Shown here: positions 8,732 through 46,719 of the stretch, one piece after another
How the letters are laid out: each line of letters starts with the position of its first letter
Numbering within the stretch: position 1 is the stretch's first letter
Virus record (IMG/VR): IMGVR_UViG_3300045988_183636
Origin: a virus
Strand: one strand, 5' to 3'
Length of the DNA stretch: 64,000 nt
Notes under the pieces: model-generated
What the model was told of the DNA's origin: nothing
Seen by the model: the letters and a program-made list of their open reading frames with translations, nothing else
The model's database searches: none
Translations under genes and position numbers: made by a program

Positions 8732-9994
8732 ATGCGGAACATGAAACACATGACATATGTGATCGGTATAAAAGTACGTATATTTCCGTCTACTGTCCAG
8801 AAACGGATCATTGCAAAGAATGACGGAGTGACACGCTTTATTTACAACCGTCTGGTTGCACGCGATCGTGAACTGCACAGCCTGCAGAAAGTGCAGATAT
8901 ACTGCGAGCCTGTTGCCAGCCGCATAGACTACCTCAAGTCACTCGGCACGGATCTGTCTGACTTTAAAGCTGCATATCCATTCCTTGAAGATCCGGAGAT
9001 TGATTCCCTTGCCATTGCCAATGCAAAACAGAATTACCTTGCGGCATGGAAGAACTTCCGGAAGGTTCCAGGCACATCCATGCCTGTATTCCATAAGAAA
9101 TGGTATGGCAAAAGCTACCAGACAAACTGCCAGTATGCATCAGGGGTCACCCGCATGGATAAAGGCAGCGTACGCCTTCTGGATGACAGACATCTCAAGA
9201 TCCCGAAACTCGGGTCTGTAAAGTTTGCTGGGTCTGGTATGCTGCAGAAGATTTTCAAACGCACCTGCGAAACAAGAATCGGGACGGTTACGGTATCCAT
9301 GGATAACTGCGGGGATTACTATGTCTCCCTGCAGGCAGGTTCTGTATGTCCGTTCCACAAAGCACTCCCGGACACCGGGGATGGTGTCGGCATTGATGTA
9401 AACATCAAGAACCTTTACACCGATTCCAACGGTCAGGAGGCAGATAATCCTAAGTTTTACACAAAAGGACAGAAGAAACTCGCCAAGGCACAAAAGAAAC
9501 TTGCCCGGAGGAAAGAACGTGCCATAAAGGAAGGACGCTCCATCTATGAGTCGAAAAACTACCAAAAGCAGCGCCTGAAAGTGGCAAGGCTCTGTCGCAC
9601 AATTGCAAGACGCAGGGAAGATTACCTTGATGTCCAGAGCAAACACTTAGTCGAAAGCCAAGACTATATATTTGCAGAGGATATCAAGACAAAGAACCTG
9701 CTGAAGAACCATAAGCTTGCAAAAGCGATCGCTGACGTCGCGTGGAGGATGTTCCTTTCCAAAGTCTCCTACAAGTGTGACTTCTATGGCAGGCTTTTTG
9801 GAAAGGTGCCGTCAAAGAACACGACACAGACATGCAGCAGCTGCGGCCATGTGATGAAAGACAGTGAACATCTCGATCTGAATATCCGTGAATGGACTTG
9901 TCCGGAATGCGGCATGCATCATAACAGGGATGAGAACTCTGCAGTCAACATAAAAAATCTCGGGAAGATGATCTACCTTCCCGAGACTGTGTAA
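8732..9994 (+). CDS. tnpB: IS605 TnpB (OrfB, RuvC-like RNA-guided nuclease family)
   Basis: C-terminal zinc finger CSSCGH...CPECG..RDENSAVNI and overall OrfB architecture. Confidence 0.75.
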   Translation: MRNMKHMTYVIGIKVRIFPSTVQKRIIAKNDGVTRFIYNRLVARDRELHSLQKVQIYCEPVASRIDYLKSLGTDLSDFKAAYPFLEDPEIDSLAIANAKQNYLAAWKNFRKVPGTSMPVFHKKWYGKSYQTNCQYASGVTRMDKGSVRLLDDRHLKIPKLGSVKFAGSGMLQKIFKRTCETRIGTVTVSMDNCGDYYVSLQAGSVCPFHKALPDTGDGVGIDVNIKNLYTDSNGQEADNPKFYTKGQKKLAKAQKKLARRKERAIKEGRSIYESKNYQKQRLKVARLCRTIARRREDYLDVQSKHLVESQDYIFAEDIKTKNLLKNHKLAKAIADVAWRMFLSKVSYKCDFYGRLFGKVPSKNTTQTCSSCGHVMKDSEHLDLNIREWTCPECGMHHNRDENSAVNIKNLGKMIYLPETV

Positions 9995-10185
9995 AAAATA
10001 TAAGAACCCATAGTTTGACAACTCACTATGGTAACCGTCCTCTAACTGGCGGGCCTCCACCTGCTTTCCTGTGGGAAAACAGGCGAGCCTGCTGTATCTG
10101 GGTAAGCTTTCCTATAGGTGCATTTCATGTTTCTTTATAAGGGATTCCACCTTACGGAGAGGCTCCTGACATCGTCAGGAGTAGT
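9995..10185 (+). ncRNA. putative omegaRNA (reRNA) / right-end region of the IS605 element
   Basis: structured GC-rich region between the tnpB stop and the RE hairpin, which is where TnpB guide RNAs are encoded in this family. Confidence 0.35.
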
Positions 10186-10586
10186 TGACCTGGGACGATG
10201 TGACTCTCCCAAGAGAGTCCACCCGGTTGACAATGAGCTACGTTCCGCAGGGAGGTAACTGGAAGGATGTTCCTCCGGAAATCCATAAATTTGGACCGGC
10301 AACGCACTCTGATATTTACCAACGCCTTGCATGGGATCAGCCATCGCCTACCCTGGTAAACTGGAGGAAAATCAATCTCACACATCCAGAGGAAAACCGT
10401 ATTCTTAATGTATCCGAAGCGGCAGCGCTTATGGGACTCCCAAAGGAATTCAAAGTTTTCGGATCAACCTTAAACGCGAAACAGCAGCAGATTGGAAACG
10501 GTGTAACTCAGGCAATTGGAAGATTTGTTAAAAAGTATGTGCTACAAGCCTTGAACATGGATGGGAAAATAGTCAAATTTGCATAA
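10185..10586 (+). pseudogene. 3' fragment of a C5-cytosine DNA methyltransferase (motifs IX-X only), truncated at the IS right end
   Basis: RILNVSEAAALMGLP..F...GS....QQIGNGV (ENV-less, GN(G/A)V motif X); no N-terminal catalytic motifs upstream; TTG start only. Confidence 0.6.
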
Positions 10587-21397: not shown

Positions 21398-21546
21398 CAA
21401 CAAATCACTTAAGGGGGAATGGGAAACCGTTCCTTCTTTTTCTGCCTGCAAGCAGACGATGTATACAGTTTATTTCAAAAATTAAAATATGAGGTTTTTC
21501 AGTATACGGTTGTAAAAATATTTTTAAAAAAACTTTCTAAATTCCT

Positions 21547-21576
21547 TTGACAATTTTCCAGATGGCGCAATATGTG
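21547..21576 (+). promoter_or_regulatory. class-1 promoter (TTGACA variant)
   Basis: ttgacaattttccagatggcgcaatatgtg. Confidence 0.55.
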
Positions 21577-21580
21577 TATT

Positions 21581-21720
21581 GTAAAGGTCATAAACCGGGC
21601 TGCCAGGGTTACCGGCTGGCAGAAATCCTTTCGATATTTGTTTACGCTTCCGGGGAAACCCGGAAAGGAGCAGGAGGACAGCAGCACATGCTGCTTCCGG
21701 GTCCGATTCCCGGATGCTTC
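21581..21720 (+). ncRNA. conserved structured 5' leader, copy A (shared ~95 nt core, then a tRNA-like T-arm minihelix)
   Basis: gtaaaggtcataaaccgggctgccagggttaccggctggcag...tccggggaaacccgga...ccgggtccgattcccgg; near-identical cores at 33143 and 38169. Confidence 0.5.
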
Positions 21721-21787
21721 TTTTACAAGACCGCACGAAGCGGCGCAAAAACCACATAAACATGACAAAATACAGGGAGATTAAAAA

Positions 21788-24091
21788 ATGAATCAGAATA
21801 AGAAGATAGCAGAGAAAAAATCAAGACCATACCAGCAGGAATGCATTGATAAGGTAGACAGCTTAAAAGAAGGAAGATTCCTGATTGCTCTTGCAACAGG
21901 GCTTGGGAAGACATGGATCTTCTCCCACTTTAAGAGATACGGAAGGGTACTTATTCTTTCACACAGGGATGAACTGGTCAACCAGCCGAGACGGTATTTC
22001 GACTGTAGTTTTGGCGTAGAAAAGGCAGAAAACCATTCCAATGGGGAAGAGGTAGTATCTGCGAGTGTTCAGACACTCAGCCATGACTCCCGTCTTAAGC
22101 AGTATAAGCCGGACGATTTCCACACGATCATCATTGATGAGGCGCACCACGCTGCCGCACCATCCTATAAGAAGATCTTAAATTATTTTTCCGGCGCTAA
22201 GCGTGTAATCGGTGTCACGGCAACTCCGAAGCGTGGCGACAACGTCCGGTTAGATGACGTTTTTAACGAGATTATTTATGCAAAGGATCTTCGTTGGGGG
22301 ATTAAAAATAAATATTTAAGTCCGGTGCACTGCCGGGAGGTCCGTGCAAAATATTCCCTGAAAGGCGTAAAAAAATCTATGGGGGATTTTAATGTATCCG
22401 ATTTGGACGGTTGTATTACGGAAGAAGCTGTAATAAGTGTTGCAAAAGTTCTTACAGACTGTCTCCAGGAGAATCGGCATATTCTTATTTATTGTACTAC
22501 TGTCAGAACCTGTAATTTCCTGAAGGCAGTAGTTGACAAACTGCTCCCGGAAAAAGAACGTGGCAGTGTTGCTGTTTTATCAGGGAAAACACAGGAAGAA
22601 GATAGAAAAAATATGCTTGATGGTTTTATGAACGGGAGTGTCCGCGCCATTATTAACTGCATGGTTTTAACAGAAGGTACAGATCTTCCTATTGCGGATA
22701 CCATTATCAACTTCCGGCCGACGTGCAACGCGTCTTTGTATCAGCAGATCATCGGAAGAGGAACCCGGCTCTATGAAGGTAAGGAAAACTGTTTATGCAT
22801 TGATATTCTTCCAGATGATGGCAGCGGGACAAGAAATCTGTGTACAGCTCTTACTCTTTTTGGTATAGATGCAAAACTTCTTGGAAAGAAACAGTCTCGA
22901 ATGCTTGAAGGTGAGATTGATCCGCTTGAGATTAGCGATGAAATTGCAGGACGATTTGCAGAACTTACAAAGGCGTATGAATATCGGTTGGAGCAGGTTA
23001 ATCGCTTTGTGCAGGAGCAGGAAGAAATTATATCTTCTGCGCGGAAGAAACCACATGCAGATTTAAGCGACCTTGCGCATGCAGTAGATAAATATAATTC
23101 AAAGAAAATGGATGAATTCCAAAATGATTATGATTTTCTTGGAATGGATTACTCACTTATGCCGGATACGGAACATCGTTATTGTATCAAACCTACATGG
23201 AATGACCATATTTACCTTGCTGATCCAGATGTTATGGGTAATACAACAGTTACGTTTGATCTTACTGCCAGTGTCGGGAAATATTATATCGGTGAAATGA
23301 AAATGCAGGATGCAATTTCATTTGTTCATGATTTTTGTATGGTATCTCCAGATTATATGAAATATTCCTGGAACGTGGCATTACAAGATGAATGGGGGAA
23401 AATAAAAGCAACTGAAAATCAAATTGGACGTCTTATGAATGAGTATGACGGGTTTCACAAAGGAAATATTAACAAACTTCAAGCATCCAGACTGATTGAT
23501 CTTGCCTCTCGTATTTCGAAGATGAAGGCAGAGGGGAAAATGATGCTTATTACACCAAGAATGCAGGAAAAAACAATTGATAAAAAAAAGAAAATGTTTA
23601 AGGAAATACTCGAAAAGGAACTGAGGGCAAAAGAGCAGGGGCGTAGTGAGTTTGGAGAATTCCAGTCGAAAATCTTTGCTTTGGCAGAAAAAAAGAAAAA
23701 AGACGAAGAGAAATTAAAGAACCAAAAGCCTTTGGAAGAAGAAATGCTCGAAAATGGGGCGATTACAGTTAATATTGCTGTTTTTAGTTCAAAAAAAACA
23801 GCAAGCGATGCGCAGATAAAATTTCTTGGTAATTTAAAAGATAAATTAAAAAACAGAGGAGTGGCTGTCGATAAAAAAATTCCTTATATAGGAATGGGAG
23901 CAGAAGAGGCAAGTGTATATATTACTATATTAAAAACGCTTGTAGATCGTAACGTAGACCTTATAAAATATGGTAAAAAAATTTATTTTAATCCAAATAC
24001 AATCATGAGTGTTGTATTAAAACTAAAGGACACTTCATCCAGAGAAATTAAATGTTGTATCCCGTTCGAAAAAATAGAAGAATTGAGATAA
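21788..24091 (+). CDS. SF2 DEAH-box helicase (ResIII-like) with a long Lys-rich C-terminal extension
   Basis: motif I ALATGLGKT, motif II DEAHH, motif III VTATP, motif VI QIIGRGTR; no HD nuclease domain. Confidence 0.75.
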   Translation: MNQNKKIAEKKSRPYQQECIDKVDSLKEGRFLIALATGLGKTWIFSHFKRYGRVLILSHRDELVNQPRRYFDCSFGVEKAENHSNGEEVVSASVQTLSHDSRLKQYKPDDFHTIIIDEAHHAAAPSYKKILNYFSGAKRVIGVTATPKRGDNVRLDDVFNEIIYAKDLRWGIKNKYLSPVHCREVRAKYSLKGVKKSMGDFNVSDLDGCITEEAVISVAKVLTDCLQENRHILIYCTTVRTCNFLKAVVDKLLPEKERGSVAVLSGKTQEEDRKNMLDGFMNGSVRAIINCMVLTEGTDLPIADTIINFRPTCNASLYQQIIGRGTRLYEGKENCLCIDILPDDGSGTRNLCTALTLFGIDAKLLGKKQSRMLEGEIDPLEISDEIAGRFAELTKAYEYRLEQVNRFVQEQEEIISSARKKPHADLSDLAHAVDKYNSKKMDEFQNDYDFLGMDYSLMPDTEHRYCIKPTWNDHIYLADPDVMGNTTVTFDLTASVGKYYIGEMKMQDAISFVHDFCMVSPDYMKYSWNVALQDEWGKIKATENQIGRLMNEYDGFHKGNINKLQASRLIDLASRISKMKAEGKMMLITPRMQEKTIDKKKKMFKEILEKELRAKEQGRSEFGEFQSKIFALAEKKKKDEEKLKNQKPLEEEMLENGAITVNIAVFSSKKTASDAQIKFLGNLKDKLKNRGVAVDKKIPYIGMGAEEASVYITILKTLVDRNVDLIKYGKKIYFNPNTIMSVVLKLKDTSSREIKCCIPFEKIEELR

Positions 24092-24265: not shown

Positions 24266-24499
24266 GTTGCACCACGCAAGGGTGCAGGGGTGAAATATTA
24301 TACTGAATCGTCGCTGCCTGCATAGATATAGTTGCATCCCTTATGGGATGTATGGGTTGAAATTCAATAGAAACAGATGCATTCGGAGGTGTTACAAGTT
24401 GCACCCCCGCAAGGGGTGCATGGGTTGAAAATAAGAAATGGTAGGAAGGAATTCAGATATGAACATTAGTTGCATCCCGCAAGGGTGCAGGGGTGAAGT
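24266..24499 (+). CRISPR. CRISPR mini-array 1 (type I-C-like repeats, 4 divergent repeats, 3 spacers)
   Basis: GTTGCACCACGCAAGGGTGCAGGGGTGAAAT / GTTGCATCCCTTATGGGATGTATGGGTTGAAAT / GTTGCACCCCCGCAAGGGGTGCATGGGTTGAAAAT / GTTGCATCCCGCAAGGGTGCAGGGGTGAAGT; spacer 2 is shared with array 4. Confidence 0.7.
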
Positions 24500-24658: not shown

Positions 24659-25306
24659 ATGTCAAAAACAAAAGGACTATCAAAGAAGAAAAAATTACTA
24701 AAAACGCTCATACATAAATACCTTCCATTGCAGGTACTACTTACTGTCTTTTTGTATGCAGTAATTGTATTTATTAACATTCCAATTAATAAATGGCTTA
24801 CTCTCAACTGTCAGAAATGGTCAAGTGGGGAATATCATTTTTATGATGCATTTTTTATTCTTCCATTTGCTGAACTGTTAATTTTTGCCATTATGTCTGC
24901 CGTTATTTGCGCTGTTTATTATTTTGTCAGTGGAATAATCGCATATAGGAATTACTGTTACATTCCACTTACAGAAGATGAAATCAAGAAAAAAGGATTT
25001 AAAAATGCAGATGAGTATTTTGCTTATGTGTGCAACATGTGTTCTTATGGTTTTAAAAATAATAAAGACTACATTCTTGTTGGTGATGAAGACCTCCAAA
25101 AAATGTTAACTACCTGTCTGCAGGTATTTCCTGATAATGGGACAATTTTTGGAATAAACCGCCATATGGTACGAAATATCATATGGGATCCTGATTTTCT
25201 TTCCGCACTTGCACTAGCCAGTGACCAAAGGGCGGAAATCATCAATGGACGTGTTGTATTGTCTGGCACCACAAAAGATGGTGACAGAAAAGAATATAAG
25301 ATATAA
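24659..25306 (+). CDS. 2-TM membrane protein, array-adjacent paralog family member 1
   Basis: MSKTKG.SKKK..LK...; shares ~45% identity along its full length with the 46072 gene and its N-terminal domain with the 25581 gene. Confidence 0.65.
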   Translation: MSKTKGLSKKKKLLKTLIHKYLPLQVLLTVFLYAVIVFINIPINKWLTLNCQKWSSGEYHFYDAFFILPFAELLIFAIMSAVICAVYYFVSGIIAYRNYCYIPLTEDEIKKKGFKNADEYFAYVCNMCSYGFKNNKDYILVGDEDLQKMLTTCLQVFPDNGTIFGINRHMVRNIIWDPDFLSALALASDQRAEIINGRVVLSGTTKDGDRKEYKI

Positions 25307-32961: not shown

Positions 32962-33108
32962 TGCTTTTATGGTGAGAGTTTTATTTTTGATCATGGCGAA
33001 ACGATACCAAAGAAAGTCCGGTTTGCAGTGTACGAAAAATGCAACCACCGGTGCAATTTTTACTTCGAAAAGATCGGACTGGATATGGCGTAAGTTTTCA
33101 AAAAATCT

Positions 33109-33139
33109 TTGACGATTTTTCAAAAGGCGCAATATGTAT
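33109..33139 (+). promoter_or_regulatory. class-1 promoter
   Basis: ttgacgatttttcaaaaggcgcaatatgtat. Confidence 0.6.
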
Positions 33140-33142
33140 AGT

Positions 33143-33283
33143 GTAAAGGTCATAAACCGAGCTGCCAGGGTTACCGGCTGGCAGAAAATCCTTTCGAAAA
33201 ATGTTTACGTTCCGGGAAATCCCCGGAAAGGATAGTGGGTACGCAGCGCAAGTTATTCCGGGTTCGACTCCCGGATATCCTTT
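33143..33283 (+). ncRNA. conserved structured 5' leader, copy B (tRNA-like acceptor/T-arm minihelix at its 3' end)
   Basis: same ~95 nt core as A and C; AAGGATA-(hairpin)-CCGGGTTCGACTCCCGG-ATATCCTT forms an acceptor-stem + T-arm (TTCGACT loop) module. Confidence 0.5.
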
Positions 33284-33318
33284 TTCAAAATTGCAGGAAA
33301 AATGTGGAGGAAAAGAGA

Positions 33319-37289: not shown

Positions 37290-37622
37290 TTGAAATGTTT
37301 GACATGCAAGAAACACTGGTCGCAGGGAGGCCGCTGTTCAGAGAACGTGAGAAACTGCCTGCATTATGAGGAAGAACCAAGAGGAAAAATGGTCCGCACA
37401 GAACTGTCTTTTCGTATGGATGCAGAGGCGGAAACTCCGGTGGTCAGATTTGGAGAGAAAATACTGGTTTCCGATGGTTCAAAAGCGGTCGAGATGACTG
37501 TGGTCAAGATCAACTGGGTTAATCTTCGGGATATGCTCTGCAATGTATCCGCGGATTATCATGAGAATGAGATGCCGCGATTTGAGAAAGAAAAGAAGTT
37601 CAAAGCATTACATGGAAAATAG
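37290..37622 (+). CDS. hypothetical protein
   Basis: RBS AAAGGAGGAGG; 110 aa; stop abuts CRISPR mini-array 2. Confidence 0.5.
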   Translation: MKCLTCKKHWSQGGRCSENVRNCLHYEEEPRGKMVRTELSFRMDAEAETPVVRFGEKILVSDGSKAVEMTVVKINWVNLRDMLCNVSADYHENEMPRFEKEKKFKALHGK

Positions 37623-37728
37623 TTGCATTCCAGTGGAATGCATGGGGTGAAAGAAATAGGCAAATCGCATGACAATTTCTGAAATTAAATTGTTGCGCTC
37701 CCGTGGAGGGGGGCGTATGGATTGAAAT
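37622..37728 (+). CRISPR. CRISPR mini-array 2 (2 divergent I-C-like repeats, 1 spacer)
   Basis: GTTGCATTCCAGTGGAATGCATGGGGTGAAAG ... GTTGCGCTCCCGTGGAGGGGGGCGTATGGATTGAAAT. Confidence 0.55.
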
Positions 37729-38082: not shown

Positions 38083-38105
38083 GTTTACACTTTCAATATG
38101 AAATG
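38083..38105 (-). promoter_or_regulatory. class-2 promoter-like motif (minus strand)
   Basis: the reverse complement reads catttcatattgaaagtgtaaac. Confidence 0.45.
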
Positions 38106-38134
38106 AAAATATTTCAAAACATTTCCAAAAACTT

Positions 38135-38167
38135 TTGACGATTTTTTAAATGGCGCAATATGTATCA
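38135..38167 (+). promoter_or_regulatory. class-1 promoter
   Basis: ttgacgattttttaaatggcgcaatatgtatca. Confidence 0.6.
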
Positions 38168-38168
38168 T

Positions 38169-38316
38169 GTAAAGGTCATAAACCGAGCTGCCAGGGTTAT
38201 CGGCTGGCAGAAATCTTTTCGATATTTGTTTACACTCCGGGGAAACCCGGAAGGGGTAGTGAGGACGCAGCGTGTGCTGTTTCCGGGTTCGATTCCCGGG
38301 TATCCCTTTTGACTGC
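38169..38316 (+). ncRNA. conserved structured 5' leader, copy C (tRNA-like minihelix GGGTA..CCGGGTTCGATTCCCGG..TATCCC), part of a ~420 nt 5' UTR
   Basis: near-identical to copies A and B over ~95 nt, then a hairpin plus acceptor/T-arm module. Confidence 0.5.
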
Positions 38317-38585
38317 CACATACGGTCTTCTCAAAATTCAGCCGTCTGCGGCCTGTGGAACTTTCCACTGGACCAAAATAACGATAACCGCCAGAATAAC
38401 AGCAGCGTGCGTTGGCGTGAGAACTATCGGCGCACAGGGATTACTCCTTTCATATTTATCTATCAAACCTTTCCGTACATCGTATGGAAAGGTTATGGGA
38501 CAGCAGGTGCATAGACATGAACTATTCCGGGATCGTTTCCCGGATGTTCCATTTTTAAAACATTAAAACAAATCATAGGAGGGAA

Positions 38586-39316: not shown

Positions 39317-39420
39317 GCTGCATCATGTGCGGGGGTGTATGGATTGAAATGTCGGAGTATGGGTAAGAATCATATATATTCCTACGTTGTGCTCCTCCCG
39401 GTTGGTGCACGGGTTGAAAT
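39317..39420 (+). CRISPR. CRISPR mini-array 3 (2 divergent repeats, 1 spacer)
   Basis: GCTGCATCATGTGCGGGGGTGTATGGATTGAAAT ... GTTGTGCTCCTCCCGGTTGGTGCACGGGTTGAAAT. Confidence 0.5.
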
Positions 39421-41011: not shown

Positions 41012-41230
41012 GTTGCGCCCCATTGGGTGCATGGGTTGAAATCTTTATGACCTTCTGAAAAGTGAGGGCATCTTAGTTGCACCCCCGCAAGGGATGTATG
41101 GGTTGAAATTCAATAGAAACAGATGCATTCGAAGGCGTTACAAGTTGCACCCCGCGAGGGGTGTATGGGTTGAAATTGCAGAAAGCTCAGGATTGGAAGG
41201 TTGCATCCTATGGGATGCATGGATTGAAAC
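41012..41230 (+). CRISPR. CRISPR mini-array 4 (4 divergent repeats, 3 spacers; spacer 2 is almost identical to array-1 spacer 2)
   Basis: GTTGCGCCCCATTGGGTGCATGGGTTGAAAT / GTTGCACCCCCGCAAGGGATGTATGGGTTGAAAT / GTTGCACCCCGCGAGGGGTGTATGGGTTGAAAT / GTTGCATCCTATGGGATGCATGGATTGAAAC. Confidence 0.65.
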
Positions 41231-41261: not shown

Positions 41262-41304
41262 CAGAAAGGTCTGCAGTCAGTTAATCTGGCTGCAGATTTT
41301 TTTT
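41262..41304 (+). terminator. rho-independent terminator
   Basis: tctgcagtcagttaatctggctgcagatttttttt. Confidence 0.6.
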
Positions 41305-41333
41305 GCAATTTTTTAAAAATTTTCCAAAATCTT

Positions 41334-41365
41334 TTGACGATTTTTTAAAAGGCGCAATATACATA
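41334..41365 (+). promoter_or_regulatory. class-1 promoter driving an ORF-less transcript
   Basis: ttgacgattttttaaaaggcgcaatatacata. Confidence 0.55.
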
Positions 41366-41369
41366 TTGA

Positions 41370-41570
41370 AGGGATAAACAGGGGCTTACCGTTTGTTTCT
41401 TCAATAAGAGTTTTTCTCTTATATGCCTCCTTAAGTTTCCTGCGCTGCATTTACAGCATTTTGGCAGCGCAGGGGGAATCCACAGGACTGCATTTGACGT
41501 TGTGTGGCGGCCTGCTCATCCGGTTCAACCCCGGAGGATTCCCTTACCGCTTATTTTTGCGGAGACAAAA
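41370..41570 (+). ncRNA. putative small non-coding RNA with a tRNA-like module (7-bp acceptor-like stem GGAATCC/GGATTCC, T-arm TCCGG-TTCAACC-CCGGA) and a terminal hairpin
   Basis: promoter to terminator-like hairpin with no ORF; the T-arm region ctgctcatccggttcaaccccggaggattccc is homologous to ctgttcatccggttcgagttcggaggattcc in the leader at 10925. Confidence 0.4.
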
Positions 41571-41595
41571 ATTTTAAAAAATATTCAAAAATTCT

Positions 41596-41626
41596 TTGAC
41601 GATTTTTTAAAAGGCGCAATATGTGT
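41596..41626 (+). promoter_or_regulatory. class-1 promoter of the cas operon
   Basis: ttgacgattttttaaaaggcgcaatatgtgt; its first ~40 transcribed nt duplicate those downstream of the 41334 promoter. Confidence 0.6.
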
Positions 41627-41668
41627 ATTGAAGGAATAAACAGGGGCTTGCCGCTGTTGATTACCAGA

Positions 41669-41700
41669 GTTAAAAGTTGTGCCCCTATGGGGTGCATGGG
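41669..41700 (+). promoter_or_regulatory. degenerate CRISPR-repeat-like sequence in the cas5 5' UTR
   Basis: GTTGTGCCCCTATGGGGTGCATGGGTAATAAG has the repeat hairpin but a mutated 3' handle; sits 16 nt before cas5. Confidence 0.5.
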
Positions 41701-41715
41701 TAATAAGAGAAAGGA

Positions 41716-42390
41716 ATGGAAAAAGAAAAAATGGGAGTGAAACTAAAAGTCTGGGGAGATTACGCATTGTTCACCAGACCAGAACTGAAAACTGAACGGT
41801 ATACATACGATGTGATGACACCGTCGGCGGCTAGAGGAATTCTGGAATCTATCTACTGGCATCCGGGACTTCGGTGGTATGTAGACAAGATTCATGTATT
41901 AAATCCGATTGCCACTACGAGCGTGAGAAGAAATGAACTTCTCAGTAAGATACCAAAGTCAAATATGCTGCAGGCATACAACGGCGGGGATGTGAAACTG
42001 TATAACTCGTCAAGAGACGATATTATCCAGAGGGCATCTGTTATTCTCCGGGATGTCTGCTATGTGATTGAGGCGCATTTTGAAATGACAGGGAAAGCGA
42101 GCCCAACAGACAGCCCGGCAAAGTTTATAAGTATCTTTAACAACAGGGCAAGAAAAGGGGCATGTTATTCGATGCCGTATTTTGGTGTAAGGGAATTCCC
42201 GGCACACTTTGAACTCTGCGAAGGAGATGAAAAGATCCCATCCTACTATGAAGGACTTCCGGATAAAGATCTCGGGCTGATGCTTTATGATCTGGATTAC
42301 TCCTGCGGTAGAGATATCCAGCCAATGTATTATCATGCGATTATGAAAAACGGCGTTATTGACGTTGGGAACAGTGAGGTGCTTCGATGA
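41716..42390 (+). CDS. cas5: Cas5c (Cas5d) of type I-C CRISPR-Cas
   Basis: KLKVWGDYALFTRPELKTERYTYDVMTPSAARGILESIYWHP matches the Cas5d N-terminal signature; start may be the second ATG at 41731. Confidence 0.8.
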   Translation: MEKEKMGVKLKVWGDYALFTRPELKTERYTYDVMTPSAARGILESIYWHPGLRWYVDKIHVLNPIATTSVRRNELLSKIPKSNMLQAYNGGDVKLYNSSRDDIIQRASVILRDVCYVIEAHFEMTGKASPTDSPAKFISIFNNRARKGACYSMPYFGVREFPAHFELCEGDEKIPSYYEGLPDKDLGLMLYDLDYSCGRDIQPMYYHAIMKNGVIDVGNSEVLR

Positions 42391-44126
42391 TCCTTCAGTC
42401 ACTTGTGAAATTATATGAAACACTTGCGGATCAGGGAAAAGTGTCCCGTCCTGGCTGGTGTAATGCAAAGGTATCCTATGCGGTGGTTTTAAACCATGAT
42501 GGGACGATTAAAGATATTGTTTCCGTGAAACAGAAAGTGAAGAGAGGAAAGAAGACTGTTGAAATTCCAATAATTATGCAGGTTCCAGAGATGGTCACCC
42601 GCGCTAACAACATTGCCTCCAGCTTTCTCTGCGAAAATGCAAAGTATCTCTTTGGGATTGACGAAAAGATGAGTTTGCGTACACTGGAATGTTTTAAGGC
42701 GGCAAAGAAAAAACATCTTGATATTCTTGATGTTGTGGATTCACCTGTAGCACAGACGGTATGTAACTTTTTCCGTTCATGGGATCCGGAACAGGCGTTG
42801 GATCAACCGGCTGTTGCAAAACTTGCAGAAGAGTTTTATAAAGGCGGAAACCTCGTTTTTGAAGTAGATGGGGAATATGTGCATGATAATGAAGAAGTCC
42901 GCAGGGCATGGATGGATTACAGCAGTGTACCATATGAAATGGTAACTGGAAGATGCCTTATTACTGGAGAGGAAGCGGAGATTGCCCGCACGCACGGGAA
43001 AATCAAAGGAGTTCCGGGAGCACAGTCATCTGGCGCGTCGCTTGTATCATTTAACGGAGCATCCCTTGAGTCTTATGAAAAAACACAGAGCTACAACGCG
43101 CCGATTAGCACCTATGCGGCGTATGCATATGTGACCGCGCTGAATTACTTGCTTTCTACGGACGGGTATCACAGCAAGGTAGGAGGTTCCATGGTGGTTT
43201 TCTGGACAGATTCCGGGGATGTGGATGATGTGAGCAGACTGCGGAAGATGATGGGAAGCATCAATGAAAAGGATCACACCCCTACAGATACGGATGAAAA
43301 ACTGTACGTCCTCTGCCTTGCACCAAATGCCGGGCGAATTGCAGTCCGGTTCTTCTATGAGGATGCGATCGGGGTAATCTGGGAAAACCTGTCCGAACAT
43401 GCCAGTCGGATGAAGATTGTAAAACCAGTATTTGAGGATCAAGAATTTATCAATATCTGGCAGATGCTCATGGAGACAGTCAACCAGAATCTTACAGATA
43501 AAACACCTGTCCCGCATATGTCAGCAATGACGTTACAGTCAGTCATTTCGGATACACCGTATCCGCAGAGTCTGTATGCAGGTGTGTTATCTCGTATCCG
43601 CGCGGAGCACAAAGGTGTTACTTACAGAAAAGCATCGATTATTAAAGCTTTTTTAATAAAGAACTACAAATGGGAGGAAGGAAAAAATATGGAAGCATTA
43701 AATGAAGGCTGTAAGGATCGGGCATATATCCTTGGAAGACTGTTTGCGGTTATGGAAAAGGCACAGAAAGAAGCAGTTGGCAATATCAACCAGACAATTT
43801 GTGATAAGTTTTACAATTCCGCGTGCACAACACCAAGATCGATCTTTCCAGTACTGATCAGGCTATCTAACAGTCATTTAAGTAAGTTGAAACGGACAAA
43901 ACCGGGGAGAGGATATTATTTTACAGCTAAAATGCAGGATTTAATGGATAAAATTCCGGTAACAGATGATGATCCGGGATTCCCGCGGCGTTTCTCATAT
44001 GAGGATCAGGGTAAGTTTGCACTTGGTTATTATCATCAGATGCGGGCGGAATATACAAGCAGTAAGTTAAAAGATAATGATTCAGAAGGTGATCAGACAA
44101 ATGCAGAGAATATGGAGGAAAACTAA
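42387..44126 (+). CDS. cas8c: Cas8c (Csd1) large subunit, type I-C
   Basis: MILQSLVKLYETLADQGKV... N-terminus; 579 aa; 4-nt overlap with cas5; position between cas5 and cas7. Confidence 0.75.
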   Translation: MILQSLVKLYETLADQGKVSRPGWCNAKVSYAVVLNHDGTIKDIVSVKQKVKRGKKTVEIPIIMQVPEMVTRANNIASSFLCENAKYLFGIDEKMSLRTLECFKAAKKKHLDILDVVDSPVAQTVCNFFRSWDPEQALDQPAVAKLAEEFYKGGNLVFEVDGEYVHDNEEVRRAWMDYSSVPYEMVTGRCLITGEEAEIARTHGKIKGVPGAQSSGASLVSFNGASLESYEKTQSYNAPISTYAAYAYVTALNYLLSTDGYHSKVGGSMVVFWTDSGDVDDVSRLRKMMGSINEKDHTPTDTDEKLYVLCLAPNAGRIAVRFFYEDAIGVIWENLSEHASRMKIVKPVFEDQEFINIWQMLMETVNQNLTDKTPVPHMSAMTLQSVISDTPYPQSLYAGVLSRIRAEHKGVTYRKASIIKAFLIKNYKWEEGKNMEALNEGCKDRAYILGRLFAVMEKAQKEAVGNINQTICDKFYNSACTTPRSIFPVLIRLSNSHLSKLKRTKPGRGYYFTAKMQDLMDKIPVTDDDPGFPRRFSYEDQGKFALGYYHQMRAEYTSSKLKDNDSEGDQTNAENMEEN

Positions 44127-45039
44127 GATGAGCACACCAATTAAGAACAGATATGATTTCGTAGTATTATTCGACGTAGAGAATGGAAATCCGAACGGTG
44201 ATCCGGATGCCGGAAATATGCCGAGAGTTGATCCAGAGACTGGCATCGGGCTTGTGACAGATGCCTGCATAAAGCGCAAGATCCGTAATTATGTGGAAAC
44301 TGTAAAAGAAGATGCAGCCGGGTTCAAGATCTATATTAAAGAGGGGGTCCCGCTGAACCGGAGTGACCTTAAGGCAGTCGAAAGTCTTGGTATTGACGTC
44401 GGTGACGACAAAAATGCACTTGAAGATGTAAAGAAGCTGAAAAAGACAGATGAAGATGTGGATCTTAAGCTCCGTGACTATATGTGTAGTAATTTCTATG
44501 ATATCCGTACATTTGGTGCTGTCTTGACTACCTTTACAAAGGCGGCATTAAACTGTGGGCAGGTACGTGGCCCGGTACAGATTGGTTTTGCAAAAAGTAT
44601 TGATCCTGTTTTCAGCCAGGATATTACTGTAACCAGAGTTGCAATCACAACGGAAAAGGATGCGGAAAAGAAAAATACAGAAATGGGAAGAAAGAGTATT
44701 ATTCCTTATGGACTTTACCGTGTGGAGGGATATATTTCTGCTAATCTTGCCCGTAAGACCACCGGCTTTTCTGAAGACGATCTGGAACTGCTTTGGGAAG
44801 CAATCATTAACATGTTTGAGAATGACCATTCCGCAGCACGCGGGAAGATGGCAGTGCGTGAGCTCATCGTATTCAAGCATAACAGCGAGCTTGGCAATTG
44901 TCCATCGTACAAACTGTTTGAAACTGTTGATGTTAAGAAGAATGATGGTGTTGAGTTTCCTCGTAAATATTCCGATTATGCAGTGACTATTCATGAGGAT
45001 GCGATTCCGGATGGCGTGACAATGACTCGCAAAATCTAA
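44127..45039 (+). CDS. cas7: Cas7c (Csd2) backbone subunit, type I-C
   Basis: RYDFVVLFDVENGNPNGDPDAGNMPR signature; RBS GGAGGAAAAC before ATG 44127 (the ORF-track start at 44077 is inside cas8). Confidence 0.8.
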
Positions 45040-45289: not shown

Positions 45290-46001
45290 GCTACGCCCCA
45301 TGGAGGGGCGTATGGATTGAAAATACCGCAACAATTAAAGGCAATGAAAATCTTGTACGCTACGCCCCATGGAGGGGCGTATGGATTGAAAATGATTGTT
45401 ATTGTTTTTTATTCATGGAGAGGAAAGCTACGCCCCATGGAGGGGCGTATGGATTGAAAAGTAAGGTTTCGTCTCGAAGCCTTTATTCTGTTTTGCTGCG
45501 CCCCATGGAGGGGCGTATGGATTGAAATACCAAAATCTTTTGACATTCTTATAAATGGTAACAGCTACGTCTTATGGGGTACGTATGGATTGAAATCATA
45601 ATAATTGTAGAGATCTCAATACAAAATAAAGCTGCGTCTCATGGAATACGTATGGATTGAAATGAAAAGGCGAGTTTGCGAAAGCAGATATTGGAATGTT
45701 GCGTCTCGTGGAGTACGTATGGATTGAAATTCCAACTTTAACTACATAACTATCCTGATAAACTTGCTGCACCCCATGGAGAGTGTATGGATTGAAATTT
45801 AAAAAATCATGGATAACATCTGCGATAAGACGTTGCACCTCGCTAGGGGTGTATGGGTTGAAATTTCCATAATCGGTAGCCAATTATTATCATTAGGTGT
45901 TGCACCCCATAGAGGGTGTATGGATTGAAATTATATAAAAATGATGAATATGTAAAAAAAATAAAAGAGTTACGCTCCATGGAGTGCGTATGGCTTGAAA
46001 C
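45290..46001 (+). CRISPR. main type I-C CRISPR array (11 repeats, 10 spacers), leader-proximal repeats conserved and distal repeats degenerate
   Basis: consensus GCTACGCCCCATGGAGGGGCGTATGGATTGAAAAT; spacers 33-36 nt; the last repeat GTTACGCTCCATGGAGTGCGTATGGCTTGAAAC lies 70 nt before the 46072 CDS. Confidence 0.85.
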
Positions 46002-46071: not shown

Positions 46072-46719
46072 ATGTCAAAAACAAAAGGAATATCAAAAAA
46101 GAAAGATATATTAAAGGTATTTTGGAATGAGTGTGCAGTATTTAAGGTAGTTGTTTGTATTCTTGCGTATGTGATACTCGGCTTTATCAATATACCAATT
46201 AACAGGTGGCTTACATTTCATGTACCTAAATGGTCAGATGGGAAACTACATGATATAACAGGATCATTTTTTGTTCTTCCTATCCTTGAAGTATTAGCGG
46301 TCACTTTAATTTATCTTATCGCTAATGGATGCTTTTATTTCATCAGCAAGATGATCGCGTACAGGAATTACTGTTACATTCCGCTTACGGAAGATGAAAT
46401 TAAAGGAAAGAAATTTAAGAATGCAAATGAGTATTTTTCCTATGTCCTCAATGTCCTTTCCTATGGTTTTAAGAATGAAAAAGAAAATCTCCAGGTTAGT
46501 GATGATGATCTTCGAGAAATGCTTATAACTTGTCTGATTGTATTCCCTGATAATGGGACAATATTTCAGATAAAACCAGAAACTGCGTGGAATGTTTCAG
46601 ACGACATCCTTTTCTCCGAAGCCGTTGAATTGAATTGCGGAAAAGCAGAAATAATTGATAAGCATGTTGTATTGTCTGGTGATAATAGAAACGGCAAAAG
46701 AGAAGAATATACAGTGTGA
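46072..46719 (+). CDS. 2-TM membrane protein, array-adjacent paralog family member 2
   Basis: MSKTKGISKKKDILKVFWNEC...; paralog of 24659..25306; RBS AAAGGAGAAAAG. Confidence 0.65.
   Translation: MSKTKGISKKKDILKVFWNECAVFKVVVCILAYVILGFINIPINRWLTFHVPKWSDGKLHDITGSFFVLPILEVLAVTLIYLIANGCFYFISKMIAYRNYCYIPLTEDEIKGKKFKNANEYFSYVLNVLSYGFKNEKENLQVSDDDLREMLITCLIVFPDNGTIFQIKPETAWNVSDDILFSEAVELNCGKAEIIDKHVVLSGDNRNGKREEYTV

Follow-up and report, generated by a model that had tools for sequence, protein, structure and literature searches.

Why should a degenerate repeat of the kind found in CRISPR arrays lie in the mRNA leader of a cas operon, with its hairpin intact and its guide-RNA end altered? The question is raised by the 64,000 nucleotides (nt) of viral DNA recorded in IMG/VR as IMGVR_UViG_3300045988_183636 (hereafter the window), where such a repeat (the leader element) precedes cas5c in a type I-C cas5c-cas8c-cas7c operon. 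An initial annotation made from the letters alone had suggested that Cas5c might bind or cleave its own leader there, or that Cascade might bind the DNA. We find that the element is conserved in two lineages of related loci, A (which includes the window) and B, that it keeps the features read by the processing nuclease and that it loses those of a guide RNA. Our preferred reading, held tentatively, is that it serves as a cis-acting site through which Cas5c would control its own message. The features on which the argument turns are the following.

41569-41653, + strand: copy P2 of a promoter-like motif, a member of an 85-nt family with its core at ~41595-41622 (TTGACG...GGCGCAATAT), directly upstream of the cas leader
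41676-41707, + strand: degenerate CRISPR repeat, recovered by exact string match and by covariance model, present in lineages A and B
41678-41696, + strand: repeat hairpin of 8 base pairs (bp), namely U-A, G-C, U-G, G-U and then four C-G, with loop UAU
41697-41707, + strand: degenerate handle UGGGUAAUAAG, compared with 25 true repeats and with lineage B
41708-41730, + strand: translation-initiation region, purine-rich, in which a Shine-Dalgarno-like (SD-like) AAAGGA (41710-41715) is followed by an in-frame ATG that is not conserved (41716) and a poly-A tract that varies in length
41731-42390, + strand: cas5c (219 amino acids, aa), the type I-C endoribonuclease that processes precursor CRISPR RNA (pre-crRNA); Pfam Cas_Cas5d, E 2.5e-38; PDB Desulfovibrio vulgaris Cas5c, E 4e-65

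The leader element and its conservation

What makes the element a repeat, and where does it depart from one? The 32-nt string GTTGTGCCCCTATGGGGTGCATGGGTAATAAG has a single exact occurrence in the window, at 41676-41707 on the + strand. Its stem, in which 41678-41685 pair with 41689-41696 (folding free energy, dG, -11.0 to -11.6 kcal/mol), is seen in both the minimum free energy (MFE) and the centroid folds of the whole leader, and it closes at A41696, in agreement with the ~7-8 bp expected of a type I-C repeat stem that closes directly 5' of the cut; a Cas5c cut is predicted between 41696 and 41697. In lineage A, as in lineage B, this A is followed by the U-G-G of a Cas5c substrate (41697-41699). 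The final 11 nt, TGGGTAATAAG, stand in place of the canonical handle TGG(G/A)TTGAAAT. UGG and U5 are retained, nt 6-8 have changed from UGA to AAU and nt 11 from U to G, and the sequence thus departs from the 11-nt type I-C 5' handle U-G-G-R-U-U-G-A-A-A-Y. Fold and repeat alignment therefore bear out the initial description of a repeat derivative that keeps its hairpin and has a mutated 3' handle. Its distance from the cas5 ATG, given there as 16 nt, has to be corrected: the element ends 23 nt before the conserved ATG at 41731 and 8 nt before the first in-frame ATG (41716).

True repeats in this genome decay in another way. Across 25 aligned examples, A22, G24, G25, T28, G29, A30, A31 and A32 are invariant, and the hairpin sequence varies widely and is partly decayed in the distal array. 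All 21 window repeats that were folded retain a T/GTGAA(A/G) core, even with a decayed hairpin (45631, dG -1.2; 45766, dG -2.7). The leader element reverses this pattern, with a hairpin as strong as those of the best true repeats (dG -11.0) and an intact stem-base A and UGG, while none of T28, G29 and A30 is left (the window has A, A and T in their places; the two lineages together show TAATAAG, TAATGAG or TGATGAG). Recognition by Bacillus halodurans Cas5c depends chiefly on U22-G23-G24 together with the base of the stem, and on neither loop nor 5' flank; the Streptococcus mutans enzyme accepts changes that lie downstream of the cut (PMC8524198). Taken with these published determinants, the kept and lost nucleotides suggest that the element retains what the nuclease reads and has lost what a guide RNA needs. 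The hairpin is also more stable in the sense than in the antisense strand (-11.6 versus -7.1 kcal/mol), since two stem G-U pairs exist only in the sense RNA; through such pairs the surplus amounts to 3.6-4.5 kcal/mol across the two lineages and indicates that the hairpin works as RNA, on the strand of the message.

Could so altered a repeat be a chance match? We scanned both strands of the window with a covariance model built from the 25 bona fide repeats, the leader element being excluded. The element scored 16.8 bits (E ~0.09 for the whole window and both strands), against 31-50 bits for true repeats, and was the 24th and weakest repeat-like match, just above the antisense shadows of true repeats and noise. 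By itself this score is borderline. Chance is unlikely because the element lies on the same strand as all other repeats, adjoins cas5 and is conserved in relatives; its first 26 nt also closely match the neighbouring true repeat at 41012. The scan of the window found no second repeat near the element, the next repeat-like match downstream being at 45290, and the sequence 3' of the element is the ribosome-binding region of cas5, not a spacer and a further repeat at ~66-68 nt spacing.

Thirty related loci fall into the two lineages, A comprising the window and L009-L018 and B comprising L004, L005 and L019-L031, and all of them carry the element. The lineages differ by 12% of nucleotides in cas5 (88% identity), by 30% at its third codon positions and by 15-18% in neighbouring genes. 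Both share one layout, which runs from the motif through the leader, the hairpin, AUGGRURAURAG and G(A/G)GAAAGGAAUGGAAAAAGA to the AUG. The hairpins themselves differ in sequence and length, UGUGCCCC-UAU-GGGGUGCA in lineage A and UGCAUC-UUCG-GAUGUA in lineage B, and both are fully paired. Between lineages the whole leader is 63% identical, with indels and a heavily diverged 5' part; the stretch from AUGG to the start codon, at 87-90% identity, is its best-conserved part. Among relatives the predicted cut site lies 30-34 nt from the AUG.

More distant comparisons added no third lineage. The protein database held no Cas5 between 95% and 66% identity, leaving only lineages A and B. Among viral contigs, an exact-pattern scan for the degenerate handle gave 0 matches, a scan for the conserved ribosome-binding stretch gave 9, all unrelated chance occurrences, and a Cas5-based scan gave two distant loci (L002 and L003) with no leader repeat. 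In the only phage-database relative, MT836695 (69% identity), cas5 follows directly after another gene and there is no repeat.

Proposed feedback by Cas5c and other explanations

What might the element do? We put the probability at roughly 0.45, a little below an even chance, that the leader of the cas mRNA has in this element a site which Cas5c cleaves or binds in cis, with feedback control as the outcome, and we prefer this reading on the pattern of kept and lost nucleotides. Transcripts would start near 41630 at the promoter-like motif, which would place the hairpin ~50 nt downstream. Cas5c made from the same mRNA would recognise the hairpin base and adjacent UGG as it does in pre-crRNA and would cut after A41696, leaving a cas mRNA that would start at the spoiled handle, bear a 5'-OH and retain 34 nt before the AUG. 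With the UGA of handle nt 6-8 lost, the new 5' end would not be captured or protected by the Cascade complex, and in a Firmicute host it would be exposed to an RNase J-type 5'-exonuclease, as is the 5'-OH product of the glmS ribozyme, which RNase J1 degrades (PMC3328962). The net effect would be negative feedback: free Cas5c beyond what the crRNA repeats titrate would lead to more leader cut and to less Cas5, Cas8 and Cas7, with a setpoint given by competition for Cas5c between 24 repeat units and one leader site. The sequence features are observed; four parts of the scheme are inferred, namely that the motif drives transcription, that Cas5c cuts the leader, what becomes of the mRNA after the cut and in which direction expression is regulated.

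Several features of the locus make such a scheme plausible. A Firmicute host is likely because the closest bacterial homologs of this Cas5c come from Blautia, Roseburia and other Lachnospiraceae. No terminator was found between the leader element and cas5, which places the element on the same transcript as cas5, and repeats that lie inside mRNAs elsewhere (at three stop codons and in two 5' regions) make processing of mRNAs by Cas5c plausible. Of the two routes that the initial annotation had offered, Cas5c acting on the leader RNA is thus a reasonable one, given the retained stem base and UGG.

Other observations weigh against it. Just two independent lineages are present in the databases reached, so the covariation evidence is thin; the lineage B hairpin resembles the repeat variant at window position 24331 and could have come by recombination, not by compensatory change; and its stem has just 6 bp. 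A presumably decaying solo repeat of lineage B (L004 3306-3337) also has an intact hairpin, so that hairpin integrity by itself says little for selection. A cleavage-only model does not explain why the two lineages conserve the altered nucleotides of the handle, and the sign of regulation could be the reverse, with processing stabilising or insulating the mRNA. The third catalytic residue of this Cas5c is Phe, not His, though aligned bacterial homologs share the Phe. At the catalytic positions, Y42 and K131 are present and Phe132 stands where B. halodurans and S. mutans have His. All eight aligned Lachnospiraceae-type homologs have K-F rather than the K-H of D. vulgaris, and the locus (L006) of one bacterial homolog that is also K-F (P0003) has cas3. 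We did not take the His-to-Phe change as evidence of inactivity, as it is common to the aligned bacterial homologs; judging from this alignment, Cas5c of this clade may use a different general acid/base.

Two rival explanations keep to the leader itself. The element may be a relic or a generic structure, that is, a decayed terminal or solo repeat from array rearrangement, kept by descent or gene conversion and acting at most as a Cas-independent stabilising leader hairpin. The scattered and recombining repeats of this genome (with the same spacers at 24364 and 41110 and strain-variable arrays), the other degenerate solo repeat with an intact hairpin in lineage B, the borderline covariance score and the count of two lineages only are all consistent with this. 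A relic is nevertheless rather unlikely, in our estimate, for an element that has kept its place relative to the start codon across 30% divergence at third codon positions while the surrounding leader diverged to 63% identity with indels, and whose stems are perfect though different in sequence, with UGG and stem base intact, when true distal repeats decay in the opposite way. Assembly in cis would instead give the handle a role: Cas5c would sit on the weakened handle and Cas7c would polymerise 3'-ward at 6 nt per subunit, covering the SD and AUG and so repressing translation of the operon's own message, with the weak handle as a low-affinity operator occupied only when Cas proteins outnumber crRNAs. 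Ribosomal proteins, threonyl-tRNA synthetase and T4 gp32 likewise act at leader sites that resemble the regulator's main substrate. An 11-nt handle plus a spacer length of 33-37 nt spans 41697 to ~41741, which includes the SD (41710-41715) and AUG 41731, in a region that is purine-rich, unpaired in both lineages and the best-conserved part of the leader. The handle changes common to both lineages suggest tuning rather than mere breakage, and the solitary repeat RNA RacrIF1 nucleates a long Cas7 filament without Cas5 or Cas8, while RacrIC1 is carried on an mRNA (PMC10651486). Yet the three changed positions are all invariant in true repeats, an argument against the stable loading of Cas5/Cas7, and the spacing from cut site to AUG varies from 30 to 34 nt among relatives, so that we regard cis assembly as unlikely.

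Two further explanations would have the element, or the region around it, act with a partner elsewhere. As a trans-acting small RNA it could be a guide of the CreR or crRNA-like RNA type, directed to a partly matching promoter, or a Racr-like decoy for the Cas proteins of a host type I-C system. Both classes are known with type I-C examples (in the CreR and Cracr preprints and as RacrIC1), a strong-looking promoter motif lies upstream in a phage-like genome, and host-type repeats can be almost identical to those of the phage (L089). A trans-acting RNA is nonetheless quite improbable: no second repeat is within reach, the handle that loads Cascade is spoiled, no terminator follows and the RNA runs on into cas5, and an mRNA that itself encodes Cas proteins is hardly a sensible place for a decoy aimed at them. 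Nor did the 34 nt 3' of the element have another match with a protospacer-adjacent motif (PAM) in the 64-kb window, the best being 22/34 with a seed of 5 and CAA as PAM; the genome exceeds 270 kb, and the host genome lay outside the search. Least probable of all, to a degree that we would call remote, is a DNA operator at which crRNA-loaded Cascade would bind the leader or promoter and repress transcription. Binding without cleavage is the activity expected of an effector with no Cas3 in the window, and the conserved spacer at 45529-45562 has its best match (25/35) in motif copy P1 at 41323. That spacer, however, finds its match in the motif rather than in the repeat-like element, it has TTT in place of TTC as PAM, and the cas-proximal copy P2 matches at 22/35 only; no window spacer matches 41660-41740, and the stem G-U pairs point to an RNA function. 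The DNA route of the initial annotation accordingly finds no support, there being no second repeat, no match with a PAM and G-U pairs in the sense strand only.

The surroundings of the leader element

How does the rest of the leader fit a site that Cas5c would read? The remaining features of this region are these.

41307-41568, + strand: second motif copy P1 (41307-41391) and ~180 nt of unannotated noncoding sequence, in lineage A only, with no Rfam match
41639-41658, + strand: first leader hairpin (AACAG..CTGTT), in MFE and centroid folds; at the corresponding position lineage B forms another hairpin

The motif, TTGACGATTTTT.AAA.GGCGCAATAT, has 10-11 copies on the + strand of the window and precedes cas5 in all relatives. 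A scan for the sigma-70 consensus does not call it; that it is a promoter is the natural reading, to be drawn from its repetition ahead of genes and noncoding units. The initial annotation had set the element between the cas promoter and the cas5 start, and this holds for its place in the leader of cas5c-cas8c-cas7c with no terminator intervening, less so for a promoter that does not match the sigma-70 consensus. Rfam has no family for the leader or for the neighbouring noncoding stretches. The element may have originated from the repeat-spacer unit at 24398 through a 4-nt deletion, though that spacer does not otherwise match the leader.

The initiation region is unpaired in the centroid folds of both lineages, and the cas5 start at ATG 41731 is conserved and called in all relatives, whose proteins count 219 aa when read from the matching codon. 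In L004 and L009 the frame of ATG 41716 is not that of cas5, as the poly-A/GAA tract varies in length; relatives differ in the purine tract at 41720-41730, which reads AAAAAGAAAAAA, AAAAAGAAAAA, AAAAAGA or AAAAAGAAGA. In the window ATG 41716 is in frame, giving a possible 224-aa form of Cas5 that also exists as a database protein (P0133). Four ideas about this part of the leader were set aside. An upstream open reading frame from ATG 41716 was rejected since its frame depends on poly-A length and its SD spacing is not usable; a long-range pairing of AUUACC (41660-41665) with the altered handle GGUAAU, present in the lineage A MFE fold, was dropped as it is weakened in L009 and absent in lineage B; the tandem stops TAATAA, TAATGA or TGATGA in the handle were rejected as numerology, their frames relative to cas5 differing between lineages. 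Rejected too was a crRNA-like RNA defined by its transcription start site, with ATTGAAGG at the transcript start as partial handle and the element as 3' hairpin, for ATTGAA(A/G)G is general to several motif copies.

Motif copies also head a series of noncoding units. The segment 41307-41568 (L009 5560-5835) consists of a tandem copy of the motif and the first ~45 nt of the leader, followed by a noncoding stretch with a T-arm-like CCGGTTCAACCCCGG. Units of 130-200 nt at 21511-21724, 33073-33285, 38099-38310 and 38525-38554 each lie behind a motif copy and end in a tRNA-like T-arm, TTCCGGGTTCGATTCCCGG. Neither ARAGORN nor Rfam at gathering thresholds calls them; their sole match, a weak one, is to the tRNA-like domain of the Deinococcus Y RNA (19 bits, E 0.8).

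Downstream of cas5c the operon and its arrays continue as follows.

42387-44126, + strand: cas8c (579 aa); Pfam Cas_Csd1, E 4e-164
44128-45039, + strand: cas7c (303 aa); Pfam Cas_Cas7, E 1e-107; start set by the gene calls of relatives, with SD GGAGGA and ATG
24266-24499, 37622-37728, 39317-39420 and 41012-41230, + strand: mini-arrays found by the covariance scan
41012-41230, + strand: the last of these, with four repeats, between an upstream 290-aa gene and the cas promoter region, its spacers conserved in lineage A
45290-46001, + strand: main CRISPR array of 11 repeats, downstream of cas7c

No cas3, cas1, cas2 or cas4 was found in the 64-kb window. A superfamily 2 helicase at 21788-24091, which adjoins a mini-array, was considered as Cas3 and rejected, as it proved not to be a homolog of Cas3. 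Type I-C variants without Cas1, Cas2 and Cas3 have been described in huge phages before (PMC7162821), and the window appears to belong to a large phage-like element of a kind that fits a huge phage. It holds a cluster of 13 tRNA genes, several PHROG families and genes for a CCA-adding enzyme, an NAD-dependent DNA ligase, a cytosine methylase, a BspA-type leucine-rich-repeat protein and LPD1 and PcfJ-like domains; no virion or structural gene was seen in it. Close relatives of its Cas5c are found on human-gut metagenome contigs of up to 354 kb.

The covariance model places 24 repeat-like units in the window, all on the + strand. A strong terminator at 41263-41303 closes the mini-array at 41012-41230 and is the nearest to the leader. 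In the main array the proximal half has identical repeats and strain-variable spacers, and the distal half has conserved spacers and divergent repeats. The proximal spacers (45290-45528) differ among near-identical strains (L009, L010 and L013, ~9560-10276) in which the repeats are identical, which suggests that new spacers are being acquired although cas1, cas2 and cas4 are missing from the window. An array in an Oscillospiraceae metagenome-assembled genome (MAG), L089, has an almost identical repeat, GTCGCACCCCGCGAGGGGTGTGTGGGTTGAAAT, and this suggests compatibility with host machinery.

Repeats also lie close to genes outside the main array. They stand near the stop codons of three + strand genes, which end at 37622 (overlapping the stop), 39314 (2 nt after it) and 40991 (~20 nt after it), so that they would be transcribed as 3' untranslated regions (UTRs); after Cas5c cleavage the first repeat hairpin would stay as the mRNA 3' end. 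The spacers of these stop-adjacent mini-arrays are conserved within lineage A, and counterparts of the mini-arrays or solo repeats in lineage B lie at L004 1274-1305 and 3306-3337. Two paralogous genes for membrane proteins, at 24659 and 46072, have further repeats in their 5' regions. The encoded 215-aa proteins (24659-25306 and 46072-46719) are 51% identical, have a hydrophobic N-terminal half and had no Pfam, PHROG or PDB match; each gene lies directly downstream of a repeat array (24266-24499 and 45290-46001, respectively). Spacers at 24364 recur at 41110, and strains differ in what their arrays contain.

One conserved array spacer, 45529-45562 (ACCAAAATCTTTTGACATTCTTATAAATGGTAACA; also L009 10002-10036 and the arrays of L010, L011 and L013), is similar to the promoter motif of the phage-like element itself. 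It lies where the variable half of the array meets the conserved half, and its best self-match, in copy P1 at 41323, is contiguous over positions 2-16 (25/35, PAM TTT). By its sequence, this spacer could guide the Cas3-less Cascade to the phage-like element's promoters or to related ones and so form a separate feedback route. A wider scheme, which we think unlikely, is that Cas5c and the repeat hairpins, besides making guides, would serve the phage-like element throughout to punctuate and regulate its RNAs, in which the Cas3-less Cascade with conserved 'old' spacers would be a regulator by CRISPR interference and the leader mimic would close a post-transcriptional feedback loop.

Known systems and bacterial relatives

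Has such an element been described before? The nearest parallel is offered by the single repeat units (SRUs), or standalone repeat-like elements, of Shmakov et al. 2023 (bioRxiv 10.1101/2023.03.03.530964), which are likewise solitary, partly degenerate repeats outside an array, conserved in close relatives and directly upstream of an effector gene. SRUs are recognised by a repeat match of at least ~16 bp, an intergenic position in a cas locus and conservation in related loci, and the leader element has all of these, with 30 loci in two lineages. Type V-A SRUs upstream of cas12a have no identifiable target, and the authors guessed that their RNA binds the cognate effector (bioRxiv 10.1101/2023.03.03.530964). 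Unlike the SRUs described, the leader element is in sense orientation within the leader of a type I-C effector mRNA, in a phage-like element, and its determinants for cleavage and for the handle are separated; type I-C is absent from the main-text discussion of that paper (bioRxiv 10.1101/2023.03.03.530964).

The crRNA-like regulators CreR and CreA (bioRxiv 10.1101/2023.03.10.532045; PMC9458426) also involve degenerate repeats in cas loci and autorepression by Cas proteins, and creA-like elements are reported for type I-C. CreR, however, acts in trans at the DNA level, through two pseudo-repeats that flank a pseudo-spacer partly pairing with the cas promoter beside a PAM, and none of this was found for the leader element. 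The RNA anti-CRISPRs, or Racrs (RacrIF1 and RacrIC1; PMC10651486), are solitary repeat mimics in virus genomes that can be on an mRNA, RacrIC1 being bicistronic with acrIC5, and they bind the processing nuclease and nucleate aberrant Cas7 filaments. The leader element resembles them as a solitary repeat behind a promoter-like motif in a viral or mobile genome, followed by its own cas5 and not by genes of the acr (anti-CRISPR) kind; Racrs differ in acting in trans against a host system and in clustering with acr genes, whereas the leader element lies in cis on its own cas mRNA and has a degenerate handle. With tracr-L of type II-A Cas9 (bioRxiv 10.1101/2020.05.21.102756) it would share the feeding back of a CRISPR-derived RNA on cas expression; tracr-L differs as a guide for DNA-binding Cas9 at its own promoter, with no RNA cleavage and no cis leader element.

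Two systems would be alike in their working. In the glmS leader (PMC3328962), cleavage produces the 5'-OH that RNase J1 degrades; there is no homology, and there the RNA cuts itself, where here a Cas endoribonuclease would. Engineered Csy4/Cas6 UTR hairpins (PMC4604432) place a repeat hairpin in an mRNA so that the cognate endoribonuclease controls stability or translation; that design is synthetic and uses Cas6f, and the leader element would be natural, with Cas5c acting on its own operon. In the literature, which was incompletely covered, we found no described sense repeat mimic in a cas mRNA leader in which the features for nuclease recognition are kept and the guide handle is lost.

Where checked (L006), cas3 lies upstream in bacterial type I-C loci whose Cas5c is 53-68% identical, and several of these loci carry repeat-like units of another design. 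An antisense handle, (T/C)GG(A/G)TTGAAA(T/C) with at most one mismatch, lies 100-430 nt upstream of cas5 in ~13-15 of 79 bacterial loci, a few of which have a true reverse array. Antisense degenerate repeat or handle units are seen between cas3 and cas5 at L006 7800-7845, at L032 700-800 and in ~13 further loci among L043-L122, and in L032 two units flank a ~30-nt pseudo-spacer that is followed by a terminator. By their sequence and placement these are candidate CreR-like regulators of type I-C systems, with an architecture different from that of the leader element. A sense handle near cas5 was found in bacteria only in L107, where a true array lies upstream, and in L073. In the latter, from a Robinsoniella MAG, a near-perfect sense handle, GTGGATTAAAAC, lies at 1426-1457 behind a weak hairpin, 44 nt before cas5, and the next ~34 nt cover the SD and start codon; as judged from this layout, the leader element may have an independent counterpart here.

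What, then, would the element mean for the systems that carry it? Known feedback of CRISPR-derived RNAs on cas genes works in trans on DNA, through tracr-L with Cas9 and through CreR with Cascade or Cas12a. Here the split between kept cleavage features and a lost handle offers a clean set of mutants. If our preferred reading is true, the leader element would be a natural case of cis feedback at the level of RNA, with Cas5c titrated between its real substrates, the 24 repeat units, and its own message. It would then show how a phage-borne, nuclease-less Cascade is dosed, and it would be the natural counterpart of the engineered Csy4 leader hairpins.

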